Assembly (NCBI GenBank): GCA_963843145.1
Contig: CAWJJC010000017.1
Coordinates: 96,001 to 160,000 of the forward strand
Length of the DNA stretch: 64,000 nucleotides
Source of the DNA: an uncultured delta proteobacterium
Lineage (GTDB): Bacteria > Desulfobacterota > RBG-13-43-22
Direction of reading: 5' to 3'
Both the position numbers and the translations under genes were made by a program. Of the stretch, positions 5,436-8,454 are shown one piece after another. The first letter of the stretch is position 1, and every line of letters begins with the position of its first letter. The notes below the pieces were generated by a model, which saw only the letters and a program-made list of their open reading frames with translations, was not told the DNA's origin and did not search any database.

Positions 5436-7682
5436 TTAAACCTCCAAAGGCAGTTCAATAGTAAAAATCGTCCCCTGGGGTTCGTTGTTTCTGACCCGGA
5501 TATGGCCCCGGTGATCGGAGATGATGGAACTGGCTATGGTCAACCCCAACCCGGTGCCTTCTTTCTTGGTGGAGAAATAGGGCTCAAACAGCCGGTCCTT
5601 ATCTTGTGGAGGGATGCCCTTTCCGGTATCCGACACTTCGATAAGGGCCATTTTAAGCAGGGGATCATAGCCGGTTTTTATCGCGATCTCTCCCTGGCCC
5701 TCAATGGCCGCCACGGCGTTATCGAAGAGGTTAATCATCACCCGTTTGATTTGTTCTCGATCCAACATAAAAGAAGGCACCTGGGTATCGGGGTCAAAGG
5801 AAAACCGGATGTGCTTGTGGCTTTCCTGGTAAAGAACCAGGACTTCCGGAATCAGGGTGTTCAGGTCATTTTGGCTTAAGGTAACCGCCGGCAGTCGGGC
5901 AAAGACAAAAAATTCATTGACCAGTCGGGTCAGTTCGTCCACCTGGTTGATAATGGTCTGGGTGCAATCATCAAAAATATCACGGCCACTCGGCAATTGG
6001 TCCAAATATTTTTTCCGCAACCGTTGGGCCGACAGCTTGATAGGCGTCAAGGGGTTTTTGATCTCGTGGGCCAGTCGCCGGGCCACTTCTCGCCAAGCCG
6101 AAACCTTTTGGATCTTTTCGATCTCGGTGAGATCATCGAAGACGATAACCAGCCCCAGGTATTTCCCCTCTTCGTCCCGTAACATGGTTATTTTTACCAG
6201 CAGGGTTAAGGTCCGATCCCGCAAAGGGACTTGTAGTGATCGCTCCAGCGTTCCTTTCTTGAGCCCGTCCAGATTGGCGACTACGTCCTGCACCAGGGCG
6301 AAATGTTCCGGCCGGAGCACCTCTCGATAAGGCCGTCCCAGGACTTTTTCGGTTTTGATATTGAGCATTTCCTTGGCGGAGGTATTGATGATGCTGATCC
6401 GGCCCACAACGTCCACCGAAATGACTCCGGCCCCGATATTGGCCAAAATGGTTTCCATGTACCTCCGCCGCTGGTTGATTTCCTCATAGCTTTTTCGGAG
6501 TTCCTCATTGATTCTTTCCAGTTCGGTCTGACCCTCCTTCAGGTCGGCCGTCATTTGATTAAAAGATCGGACTAACAGCCCGAATTCATCCTTGGCGTCC
6601 AGGTCGATAGTAAAATTATAGTCCCCCTGAGCGACTCGGAAGGTGCCCTCGGCCAGCCGTTGAATGGGAATAGTAATCCCCTTGGCCAAATAAAAACCAA
6701 ACCAGGTGGCCGAAAAAATAATCAGCAGGGTGACAATCGAGAGAATGATTAAATAGGTAAATTTGATGGGATTCTTCAATAACTGCATCTGGCGGTAGCC
6801 TTCCAGACCGCTCGAGATGGCGTCCATTTTTCGCATCAGGGTTTTGGGAAAATAGGATACCGCCACCAGGGTGGCTGCCGCTGCTTTGGTTTGCGATTTG
6901 TCCCAAACCGGGACTCCGGCAATAAAGAAGTCCCCTTCCGATGTTGATTGGATGTCGGTAATTCCGGAGGGCTGGAAACCCTTTTGGATAAAGGAGAGGG
7001 ACGGGGCGTTGAAAAATTCAAGAAAGGCTTCCGGTCGGGCAACCTGGAAACGTCGCTCCATGTTCGGCAGGTAAAGGGCCACCCAGGACAACCCATATTC
7101 CTGGAGCTTGTCCTGCAGTAATTTCTGAACCTCCAGGGAGTTGGCGGGGCTTAAGGCGCCCGGCTGCGCCAAGTCCTGGGAAATCTGTTGAGCATAAGTC
7201 CGGGTTCCCCTCTGGGAGGATTGGTAATAGGCCTTGCCCACGTCCAAAGAATCTTCGAGAGACCTTTCCAGATGAATAGTGAACCAGTAATCCATTCCGG
7301 TGGTCATAAATTCGTAGGCGATAACAAAAAGCACTATGGTGGGAATCAGGGAAAGGGTGACAAAACCCAAGACCAGTTTGGTACGTATTTTGGAACCCAG
7401 TATTTTACGCTTTCGTTCCAGGAACAGTTTGGAAAGATTCCGGACGACTAAGAAGATCAACAACAGCAGGAGGATGATATTAATATTGATGAGGGCGAAG
7501 AGAATCACCCGCTGGGTCGTGGAAAAGGGAATTTCGGTGCGGAGGATCTTGGTTTCCCAGAAAGTTATGGCAATGACCACCACCGAGGTAATGACGATGA
7601 TGATCCGTTCTCTTTTTCGGCGGCGGTGTTCCTTTTCCTCCTCCGGGAAAACCGTTTTCAATCCTTTGGGGTGCTGAGCCAT
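5436..7682 (-). CDS. Sensor histidine kinase (NtrY-like; HAMP-PAS-HisKA-HATPase)
   Basis: N-terminal TM helices, AWREVARRLAHEIKNPLTPI H-box, GTGLGL G-box. Confidence 0.9.
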   Translation of the reverse strand: MAQHPKGLKTVFPEEEKEHRRRKRERIIIVITSVVVIAITFWETKILRTEIPFSTTQRVILFALININIILLLLLIFLVVRNLSKLFLERKRKILGSKIRTKLVLGFVTLSLIPTIVLFVIAYEFMTTGMDYWFTIHLERSLEDSLDVGKAYYQSSQRGTRTYAQQISQDLAQPGALSPANSLEVQKLLQDKLQEYGLSWVALYLPNMERRFQVARPEAFLEFFNAPSLSFIQKGFQPSGITDIQSTSEGDFFIAGVPVWDKSQTKAAAATLVAVSYFPKTLMRKMDAISSGLEGYRQMQLLKNPIKFTYLIILSIVTLLIIFSATWFGFYLAKGITIPIQRLAEGTFRVAQGDYNFTIDLDAKDEFGLLVRSFNQMTADLKEGQTELERINEELRKSYEEINQRRRYMETILANIGAGVISVDVVGRISIINTSAKEMLNIKTEKVLGRPYREVLRPEHFALVQDVVANLDGLKKGTLERSLQVPLRDRTLTLLVKITMLRDEEGKYLGLVIVFDDLTEIEKIQKVSAWREVARRLAHEIKNPLTPIKLSAQRLRKKYLDQLPSGRDIFDDCTQTIINQVDELTRLVNEFFVFARLPAVTLSQNDLNTLIPEVLVLYQESHKHIRFSFDPDTQVPSFMLDREQIKRVMINLFDNAVAAIEGQGEIAIKTGYDPLLKMALIEVSDTGKGIPPQDKDRLFEPYFSTKKEGTGLGLTIASSIISDHRGHIRVRNNEPQGTIFTIELPLEV

Positions 7683-7718
7683 AGGCGGGCAGCAATAATA
7701 AAAGCCGGGGGCAATTGC

Positions 7719-7869
7719 TTAGTCCCTCGATTCATAAATCCGATAACGTATCTATTCACTCGGGACTAAGTGTTTCCCTCGGCCATGAGCTCGGGCCGAA
7801 TGGAGTGAGCAATTGCGCTGGTTAGACTCATAAAACATAGGTTATCCTATTTGCGAATCGAAACACTTA
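7719..7869. mobile_element. MITE-like element with 21-bp subterminal inverted repeats and TTA at both ends
   Basis: TCGATTCATAAATCCGATAAC (7727-7747) versus the reverse complement of 7841-7861, TCGATTCGCAAATAGGATAAC (17/21 identical); TTA at 7719-7721 and 7867-7869. Confidence 0.6.
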
Positions 7870-8454
7870 GTAGTTGAATTCCACCACATACCAATCGGTT
7901 TCAAAATCCCACAAGGAGACAAAAAAGAGGATGTAGTGCAGATAAAGAGGCAGGGTGACCTTATTCAATTCCGCTTTTATCCGCAGTTGGTATTTATTGT
8001 TTCTTTCCAACTGCTTCAGGGGAATCAGTTGGATATTACTGACATCGGCCATTATCTCCTGGGCCTTGGAGAATTCCTTGACAATAAAGGTCTGGTTTCC
8101 CCGTTCACTCAGCGTGAGGTTAAATTCCTCCCTCAGGGAATCGTATTTGATGGTGTGATGAAGTTTAACGGCGGATAATTTCTTGTTGGGCCAAAAATTA
8201 CGCGGTTGGTAGATCTCTATAAAAAAGGTAAAGGTGGTGGGAATGCCGCTCATGATTGCCTTGTTCATTTCCGGCGTAAAACACCCCTTCGTATTAAAGT
8301 AGACCAGCAACTCATCTCGGTTATTGGTTACAATAATATCGGCAATCTGGGCCTGTTTACCCCAGAGCATCGAGGTCAGGGAGAAAACCAGGACCAGACT
8401 GATCACCCCTAAGAAACAGGAATATTTTGATATTTTTAAAAAAATCCCACTCAT
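7867..8454 (-). CDS. DUF4390 domain protein (exported)
   Basis: Signal-like N-terminus and WDFETDW C-terminus; DUF4390 genes typically lie upstream of ntrY-like genes. Confidence 0.8.
   Translation of the reverse strand: MSGIFLKISKYSCFLGVISLVLVFSLTSMLWGKQAQIADIIVTNNRDELLVYFNTKGCFTPEMNKAIMSGIPTTFTFFIEIYQPRNFWPNKKLSAVKLHHTIKYDSLREEFNLTLSERGNQTFIVKEFSKAQEIMADVSNIQLIPLKQLERNNKYQLRIKAELNKVTLPLYLHYILFFVSLWDFETDWYVVEFNY

Follow-up and report, generated by a model that had tools for sequence, protein, structure and literature searches.

The window analysed here, a stretch of 64,000 nucleotides from an uncultured delta proteobacterium of the Desulfobacterota (contig CAWJJC010000017.1, positions 96,001 to 160,000, forward strand), carries a 145-bp element between a DUF4390 gene and the gene of an NtrY-like sensor histidine kinase. 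The element is a real and recently mobile insertion that duplicates its target. It is a MITE (miniature inverted-repeat transposable element), ordinary in kind, that belongs to a large and apparently undescribed family, and it has no coding capacity, with zero open reading frames (ORFs) of at least 50 amino acids starting inside it. Its tips are similar to those of IS630-type elements, it is built of two homologous hairpin units, and the base pairs of its fold are conserved. Our analysis indicates that this gene-less element quite probably owes its movement to a DDE transposase supplied in trans, most likely one related to the IS630/Tc1-mariner group, and that its centre is probably a structural part of a two-unit fold-back. 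An initial annotation of the window had instead read two internal segments as guides to the donor junction and to the target, in the manner of the bridge (seek) RNAs of IS110/IS1111 elements.

Copies and empty sites define a mobile insertion

Three copies of the element reside in the source genome (5.35 Mb, 32 contigs), at unrelated loci and with unrelated flanks. The second copy (C1:11389-11539) is 95% identical to that of the window, and the third (C12:200315-200440) is without a 28-nt G+C-rich block. In two genomes of the same genus, G002 and G003, the spacer between the DUF4390 and kinase genes is empty and reads ...AATTGC-TTA-GTAGTTGAA, with a single CTTAG whose TTA already acts as the DUF4390 stop codon. 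The C12 locus is empty in both genomes too, with a single CTTAG or CTTGG. The empty site that had been predicted, GCAATTGC-TTA-GTAGTTG, exists in these genomes and in metagenome contigs from runs X2 and X3 (two studies), in which position 7717 is joined to 7866 with 148 bases skipped and six ambiguous letters; a contig from run X1 spans the element. As assembled contigs, these records establish that both alleles are present and carry no readable allele frequency. The original view of a non-autonomous mobile element is thus supported by both the copies and the empty sites.

At the site orthologous to the C1 copy, G002 retains a 33-nt remnant with the two repeat cores only (L514, G002:C14 ~307832), which consists of GTCCCTCGATTCATA + TTGCGAATCGAAACAAC and is still hairpin-forming. 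Because of this remnant, the C1 insertion is taken as an older one that decayed by internal deletion. L514 also illustrates how mini-palindromes resembling repetitive extragenic palindromes (REPs) arise from MITEs via internal deletion.

The element, its parts and its neighbours are listed below.

7722–7866, plus strand: element proper, 145 bp, with boundaries from the three-copy genomic alignment and the empty sites
7719–7721, plus strand: left copy of the duplicated target TTA, in C-TTA-G context (C at 7718; single CTTAG in empty sites)
7867–7869, plus strand: right copy of the duplicated TTA, equal to the TAA stop codon of the minus-strand DUF4390 gene
7722–7747, plus strand: left terminal inverted repeat, tip GTCCC then TCGATTCATAAATCCGATAAC (repeat search and family consensus)
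7841–7866, plus strand: right terminal inverted repeat, GTTATCCTATTTGCGAATCGA then tip AACAC (repeat search and family consensus)
7722–7766, plus strand: unit A, a 45-nt hairpin unit GTCCC...GGGAC with the inner hairpin ATAAATCCG (7734-7742) / CGTATCTAT (7747-7755)
7767–7769, plus strand: middle TAA between the inner tips, which together with 7762-7766 and 7770-7774 forms the junction copy GGGAC-TAA-GTGTT
7770–7866, plus strand: unit B, GTGTT...AACAC, whose reverse complement is homologous to unit A, plus extra internal sequence
7756–7808, plus strand: stem TCACTC (7756-7761) / GAGTGA (7803-7808), or helix 4, which encloses the junction-like centre
7775–7802, plus strand: optional 28-nt G+C-rich hairpin cassette, TCGGCC...GGCCGA around GAGCTC, not in the C12 copy nor in most relatives
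7867–8454, minus strand: DUF4390 gene (E 6e-44), whose stop codon is the right TTA
5436–7682, minus strand: NtrY-like sensor histidine kinase gene, the next downstream gene on the minus strand, with the element 36 nt upstream of its start codon

Reading of the sequence directly places CTTAGT at 7718-7723 and again at 7866-7871, in agreement with the TTA that had been noticed at each end and with the right one (minus-strand ORF 7867-8454) as the DUF4390 stop. The element inserted into the C-TTA-G that holds this stop codon and duplicated the TTA; the net gain per insertion is 148 bp, one TTA counted.

The DUF4390/kinase spacer appears to serve small elements as a landing pad. G001 has a different element of ~165 bp there (L024:1334-1497; window 7683-7866), with 13-bp perfect terminal repeats CTCGCAAAAAGTC and flanking GTCAATTTTT repeats. 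Record 4 of run X2, a metagenome contig, matches window positions 7717-7759 only, that is, the left 43 nt with unit A, and runs on into unrelated sequence in either direction; it represents one more partial or mosaic copy, carried by a related population, and resembles a partial match on G002:C7.

Two inverted hairpin units build the element and its central junction copy

The two ends pair as a 45-nt inverted repeat of 71% identity (7712-7756 / 7832-7876, repeat search). The 17/21 subterminal inverted repeat that was first described lies inside it and stands as such, but the supposedly non-matching termini are the variable positions 3-5 of true terminal repeats. The repeat search further identified a perfect 12-nt inverted repeat between the centre and the right end (7765-7776 with 7860-7871) and a perfect 9-nt one between the left end and the centre (7718-7726 with 7762-7770); by our own arithmetic, a perfect 12-nt inverted repeat in 154 nt has a chance expectation of ~7e-4. 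The internal 15-mer GGGACTAAGTGTTTC at 7762-7776 is indeed, as initially annotated, the exact reverse complement of the right end, TTA and the left end joined together, and 13 of its nucleotides form a conserved family feature. This junction-copy architecture recurs in 3/3 copies of the source genome and across the wider family. The TTCACTC/GAGTGAG stem around the centre (7755-7761 / 7803-7809) was also correctly described.

Alignment of unit A with the reverse complement of unit B gives a median z of 5.65 against shuffles (n=44 elements). Both follow the same order of tip, TCGATTC, ATAAAT-type hairpin, TCACTC and tip, with ~23 extra nt in B, and unit A is found alone, flanked by TTA, in L055 and L101. 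The 5-nt tips are complementary within each unit and covary (GTCCC/GGGAC, GTCCT/AGGAC, GTCGT/ACGAC), the tips of unit B being GTGCT/AGCAC in the family and GTGTT/AACAC in this genus. Because each unit has complementary tips, an inner tip, a TWA (W, A or T) and the other inner tip add up to the reverse complement of the joined outer ends. The internal junction copy is more likely a structural by-product of this two-hairpin build than a guide.

The element is a fold-back in which units A (7722-7766) and B (7770-7866) lie in inverted orientation around a common middle TWA. The two-unit form may have arisen by one unit landing in the CTWAG at the end of an inserted copy. A second unit can land exactly at this junction because the tips begin with G and end with C, regenerating CTWAG on both sides. 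The scenario that the initial annotation had named as its own refutation, two small palindromes in tandem at one TAA, fits this anatomy, but the pair moves as one unit.

An alignment of 49 sequences over six helices has 92.8% of 1908 cells paired over 39 pairs. Compensatory changes occur in 11 pairs and amount to 47 cells, compared with 17.7 +/- 3.4 in shuffles, and 0/500 shuffles reach the observed value, this control ignoring the relatedness of the sequences. When the alignment is slid as a control, the paired fraction falls to 27-39%. Helices 1 and 3 of unit A carry compensatory changes, and helix 4 is paired in 94.9% of cells with compensatory change in two pairs (TCCCTC/GAGGGA variants). 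Since compensatory changes exceed the shuffles and pairing exceeds the slid controls, the fold itself is conserved; its conservation may act at the DNA or the RNA level.

Compensatory base pairs would equally be present in a cis-regulatory structured RNA that hides a downstream ribosome-binding site and is not mobile. Consistent with such a switch, several relatives end in ...CACTAAGGAG just before an ATG, and G005, G012 and G019 retain a copy at one syntenic site. However, insertion polymorphism and empty sites contradict it as the primary nature of the element, as do copies in both orientations and in tens per genome, and the TAAGGAG of these relatives is a frequent instance of the CTAAG target. 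Moreover, an Rfam 15 scan of 7500-8100 at E <= 10 returned seven matches, all at E >= 0.73 and far under gathering scores, and promoter and terminator prediction over 7500-8000 found no such site. We therefore consider a regulatory RNA extremely unlikely as an explanation, while a secondary RNA effect on neighbouring genes is possible.

A widespread family duplicates TWA or TA

Homologues of ~125 nt occur in 7/21 genomes among family-level relatives, and a pattern scan of one genome per species detected at least 119 loci. We fetched 80 of these loci with 3-kb flanks and used a sequence-only model, R1, for full-length matching, which matched in 23/80. Carriers are mostly metagenome-assembled genomes (MAGs) of Desulfobacteraceae, Desulfobacterales and Desulfatiglandales, with relatives in Planctomycetota, Acidobacteria, Solirubrobacterales and others. 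Five other carrier MAGs hold 7 to 69 model matches each, both strands counted, and 7 to 43 occurrences of the 13-mer TCGATTCRYAAAT per genome, compared with 0 for a reversed control; G061-G064 have tens of copies at unrelated loci. The exact 19-mer TCACTCGGGACTAAGTGTT gave 0 matches across the genome-contig collection. A full-text search with the 13-mer returned no relevant paper, and the available portions of two papers on bacterial MITEs (PMC10969869, PMC3184786) are silent on the family.

Family variants are mosaic, and truncated and mini forms are common, among them mini-hairpins of 27-33 nt (L052, L237 and the G002 derivative). The centre is absent in some copies, missing in 8/73. The Acidobacteria relatives have plain 35-bp terminal repeats without a centre, at ~19 pairs per genome, and where an end stands alone in the Acidobacteria MAG, it belongs to a truncated copy or a mini-hairpin.

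The terminal repeats have the family consensus GT, three variable nucleotides (NNN) and TCGATTCATAAAT, with GTNNNTCGATTC(AT/GC)AAAT at both ends. Every family end reads C-TWA-G-T-NNN-TCGATTC..., or in short form, with its target context, C-TWA-GTSCYTCGATTCAT. The left and right TWA are equal in 87/109 elements (de-duplicated parse). From the empty sites and these equal but variable flanking TWAs, we conclude that TWA is a target-site duplication in C-TWA-G. Near-identical copies differ in TAA versus TTA: 8/13 pairs at >=95% identity agree, compared with ~60% overall. Clade inheritance of the end W is weak, and W switches on both sides together between near-identical copies. Because TAA and TTA vary in this way, the flanking TWA is a duplication made at each insertion and not a guide-matched donor. 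CTAAG and CTTAG are mutually reverse complementary, and W therefore records only the orientation of the element on an asymmetric site. Desulfobacterota and Acidobacteria copies duplicate TWA in CTWAG, whereas Planctomycetota and Solirubrobacterales relatives duplicate TA in CTAG.

G+C-rich hairpin cassettes around GAGCTC, ~25-60 nt long and some of them nested, sit at several fixed MITE points in different genomes (window 7775-7802, L061, L063, L046, L110, L200, L504-L511). These cassettes have the look of an additional layer of mini-palindromes, modular and possibly mobile; in the source genome, the 28-nt cassette is found inside the two long copies only.

The flanks also bear on the proposal that the element is of the IS110/IS1111 type, with bridge or seek RNA guides to its donor junction and its target. 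An internal 13-15-mer complementary to the joined ends and six IS110-family genes in the genome speak for it. The junction match in bridge RNAs is, however, reportedly split over two strands of two loops, whereas here it is one contiguous palindrome-like site. The 11-nt target guide TGAGCAATTGC does match the flank at 10/11, with ~0.1 such matches expected by chance according to our arithmetic, and GCAATTGC occurs at both 7711-7718 and 7809-7816. Yet the flank GCAATTGC/TCAATTGC is already in the G002 empty site and pre-dates the insertion, and the internal GAGTGAGCAATTGC is constant beside unrelated flanks, such as TTTTTTTTG, GGAATCC and GGGAAGC; the 11-nt match is put down to chance, and the flank comparison already contradicts this type of element. 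A middle W that mismatches the end W in 14/55 copies and the copies that lack a centre also speak against the two-guide logic. Compared with the element, the six IS110 loci gave a longest match of 12 nt at E 0.15 and none at the ends or junction, and none of them pairs a DEDD recombinase with the same ends. Nor is it IS110-like to duplicate 3 nt with a free W, to have full terminal inverted repeats and to lack a recombinase gene. With flanks that are not tracked, a per-insertion TWA and IS630-type ends, the two-guide logic is not supported, and we give this explanation almost no credence.

The ends resemble those of an IS630 clade

When transposase loci totalling 226,556 bases were scanned with a looser motif, one near-exact match emerged, at the very end of an insertion sequence (IS). 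This IS (G061:C22:1-1250, L244) starts AC-TA-GTAGTTCGATTCATAAAAAGCTTTACA, its left end also being given as AC-TA-GTAGTTCGATTCATAAAAAGC, and encodes a protein of 377 amino acids with DDE_3 (E 1e-19) and HTH_32, which places it in the IS630 family. Its left end GTAGTTCGATTCATAAAA and the MITE end GTCCYTCGATTCATAAAT have a 12-of-13 core in common. Among 80 relatives of L244 retained out of 375 confirmed ones, which are ~1.25 kb long, 58-76% identical and spread over many phyla, the ends read C-TA-GTA(T/G)..(T)CG(A/T)TTCA....TTTACA, and CTAG bounds the shared IS sequence on both sides in 8/8 copy pairs compared. The MITE and the IS clade share the tip layout (GT, three free bases, TCGATTCAT.AAA), a motif right at the end and a palindromic target centred on T(W)A. 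From this resemblance we take the MITE ends to be homologous to those of the IS630 clade. By comparison, the duplication differs, being TA in CTAG for the IS and TWA in CTWAG for the window element; neither the 3-nt duplication nor the full MITE repeat is present in any of these IS630-family elements. A parse of the TWA copies as TA duplications was rejected as unparsimonious, since a single end would have to carry an additional base, with the side alternating.

The clade (L299-L378, the 80 relatives retained) includes Desulfobacterota, Gammaproteobacteria, Planctomycetota, Nitrospirae, KSB1 and others, and some complete genomes, for instance OY781976 and OZ244920, contain many identical copies.

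The mobilising enzyme itself is one that we infer from these ends. The initial annotation had suggested a look for longer copies encoding a recombinase or transposase. Such an autonomous partner was sought as inverted tips spaced kilobases apart, and none turned up among the 80 loci fetched with 3-kb flanks, nor within six carrier genomes. A second pattern scan for IS-type ends (TCGATTCATNAAAN{3,5}TTTAC) gave IS-like tips in 11/119, with 10 TA and 1 TTA, and no TWA-type IS emerged from it. The transposase genes of the source genome comprise 11 Y1_Tnp, three DDE_Tnp_1, no DDE_Tnp_1_2, no DDE_Tnp_4, one DDE_3 remnant and six IS110; none adjoins a copy and none has its ends. Across 47 transposase loci in seven genomes (146,065 bases; Y1, IS4/IS5-type and IS630-type), there were 0 model matches and no copy within ~1.5 kb. 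DDE_3 is present in G061 and G064 and was not found in G001, G062, G063 and G065, which are MAGs, where repeats are often unassembled.

Other candidate partners were set aside. The DDE_3 loci L242, L243 and L245 are fragments without usable ends, and a 1.38-kb IS of G001 (DDE_Tnp_1/DDE_Tnp_4-like) has ends unrelated to the MITE. This IS is represented by two copies of 99.6% identity (L283/L288, G001:C27 at 89.7 kb and 101.7 kb) that encode a protein of ~376-381 amino acids.

A different enzyme class would be implied if the element were a palindrome like REPs and their doublets (REPINs), or one derived from IS200/IS605, moved as single-stranded DNA by a Y1 (HUH) transposase; the apparent duplication would then be a left target pentanucleotide and a right cleavage site. 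The genomes are rich in Y1_Tnp, with 11 matches in the source genome and 2 to 20 in six others, and an inverted hairpin doublet with covarying stems and a conserved loop-side motif is REP-doublet-like, as are the mini-hairpins of 27-33 nt. REPINs are REP doublets without target duplication that adjoin their Y1 gene. The window family, unlike these, has a target duplication and shows no Y1 adjacency in the 47 loci, ~40 of them Y1, nor any tip motif adjoining a Y1 gene. Furthermore, the flanking W changes on both sides together between near-identical copies, as in a true duplication, so that the fixed flanking tetra- or pentanucleotide of IS200/IS605 elements is not found; the ends agree with IS630-type terminal repeats, the offset included; and at least one mini-hairpin (G002, C1 locus) arose in place from a full copy by internal deletion. 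Mobilisation by Y1 is, on balance, very unlikely.

As for the Y1_Tnp genes themselves (L159-L168, including G000 C12:95523, C15:56049, C15:62881, C27:1282, C5:5066 and others), 8/11 matches in the source genome are ~225-335 amino acids long and not the usual ~150. Several lie between short inverted repeats (type GGGACGTTGGTT / AACCAACGTCCC), and two adjoin IS110 genes on C15.

The middle W and the spacer length

Of 55 elements in which the end TWAs are equal and the centre can be read, 41 have a middle W complementary to the end W and 14 an identical one (binomial p 3.6e-4). Where the middle is TAA, the ends are TTA in 14 and TAA in 10; where it is TTA, the ends are TTA in 4 and TAA in 27 (Fisher p 5e-4). 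A looser parse gives 41 complementary versus 18, and further copies inspected by eye, which lie outside these counts, lean in the same direction. The bias is strong in the AGGAC-TTA class (23 vs 4). The spacer between the inner tips has a length of 3 nt in all cases where 3 nt are duplicated at the ends, and of 2 nt in 7/7 Planctomycetota copies with C-TA-G ends, several of which have common flanks and are not independent; the two-unit form of these copies is homologous to that of the 3-nt lineage. Four Planctomycetota loci of G065 (L498, L499, L500 and L232) share extended flanks, GGTTCACAAG... on the left and ...GACCCTCACCCCGGCC on the right, and are not independent insertions because the MITE is nested inside a larger repeat.

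The W association and the match of spacer to duplication are what a functional splint or guide would predict, without proving one. In such a case the centre would act as a single-stranded DNA or RNA loop, RGGAC-TWA-GTGCT, that pairs with the two ends, with C-TWA-G (the duplicated one or that of the target) or with ends and C-TWA-G alike, serving as a splint that draws the ends together or biasing orientation on CTWAG. Stated for transposition, the centre would be a DNA or RNA mimic of the element's own end junction that is exploited by the transposition machinery, the single asymmetric base setting the orientation of insertion, with a spacer co-evolved with the stagger (2 nt for TA, 3 nt for TWA). 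The complementary W in 41/55 copies, the equality of spacer and duplication length in both lineages despite their homologous two-unit form, the covariation of tips within units and the compensatory change in the enclosing stem are consistent with this role. On the other hand, the W is non-complementary in 14/55 copies, including a recent near-identical cluster (L207, L208, L210, L215), and the centre-less copies (8/73) and Acidobacteria relatives argue that the centre is dispensable. In flank tallies, the flanks outside C-TWA-G are without a match to the element, and the W association, besides depending on a single variable base, is confounded with subfamily. We regard a functional centre as unlikely, both as a pairing loop and as a co-evolved mimic.

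If the centre is structural, the W bias could be subfamily-specific or reflect putative survivorship. Copies with identical W have perfect 6-nt direct repeats around each hairpin unit, an arrangement known to favour deletion by slippage, and it is exactly to this identical-W type that the solo copies of unit A belong. The excess of complementary W may thus represent better survival, with identical-W copies lost by replication slippage.

Comparison with known elements

Like the ~1.25-kb IS630 clade, the window family has terminal repeats that start with GT, 3 nt and (T)CGATTCAT.AAA directly at the duplicated target, and it uses a short palindromic target with T(W)A at its centre; its relatives in Planctomycetota and Solirubrobacterales, as the ISs do, duplicate TA in CTAG. 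RUP of Streptococcus pneumoniae is an example of an IS630-type MITE. The window element differs in its internal tip-to-tip junction-like site and in having a cognate transposase known only by inference.

IS5-family elements of the ISL2/IS1031 group also make a 3-bp TWA duplication. The ends of the window element, by comparison, resemble no IS5-type element met here; DDE_Tnp_1_2 is absent from the source genome and six other carrier genomes, and the DDE_Tnp_4 matches are weak and have unrelated ends. The same 3-bp TWA duplication is given as a hallmark of PIF/Harbinger elements in the abstract of PMC4482050.

According to PMC10969869 and PMC3184786, Correia- and ERIC-type MITEs are similar in being ~100-155 bp long, intergenic and hairpin-forming, with long and short variants that differ by an internal block and with decay to small palindromes. 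They have no sequence relation to the window family. Chunjie, a Geobacter MITE treated in the same literature, was rejected as a match on account of its 9-bp direct repeats and 21-bp terminal repeats.

Discussion

Several observations weigh against a structural centre in an element moved by an IS630/Tc1-mariner-type enzyme. No autonomous element came to light that combines these ends with a TWA duplication, the recognisable IS630-type ends being all C-TA-G, and PMC2170065 describes IS630/Tc1-mariner insertion as strictly into TA with a 2-bp stagger, unlike the 3-nt TWA duplication in CTWAG of the window lineage. The source genome holds only one decayed DDE_3 remnant, and three of the five high-copy MAGs (G062, G063 and G065) are without a DDE_3 match. 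Compensatory stem changes hint at selection for a fold of single-stranded DNA or RNA, and plain cut-and-paste DDE transposition has no need of such a fold. In addition, a purely structural centre predicts neither the W complementarity nor the 2-nt spacer of the TA lineage, and the GGGAC-TAA class by itself shows no W bias (9 vs 8).

The combination of IS630-type ends with a 3-bp TWA duplication points either to an IS630-like transposase whose stagger is 3 nt or to a different enzyme working on ends of this kind, and either would widen the known Tc1/mariner-type chemistry. The centre, its spacer equal to the duplication length and its ~3:1 complementary excess are measurable features that may reflect a role of DNA structure in MITE transposition or hairpin-driven deletion that shapes the surviving copies. 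Were the centre functional after all, a DDE-type (IS630-like) MITE would add nucleic-acid-assisted recognition of target or ends to the work of a protein transposase. The family spans MAGs of Desulfobacterota, Acidobacteriota, Planctomycetota and Actinomycetota, and for the annotation of such genomes it matters that these elements are located on stop codons and on ribosome-binding sites (CTAAG, TAAGGAG), where they may alter the expression of neighbouring genes.

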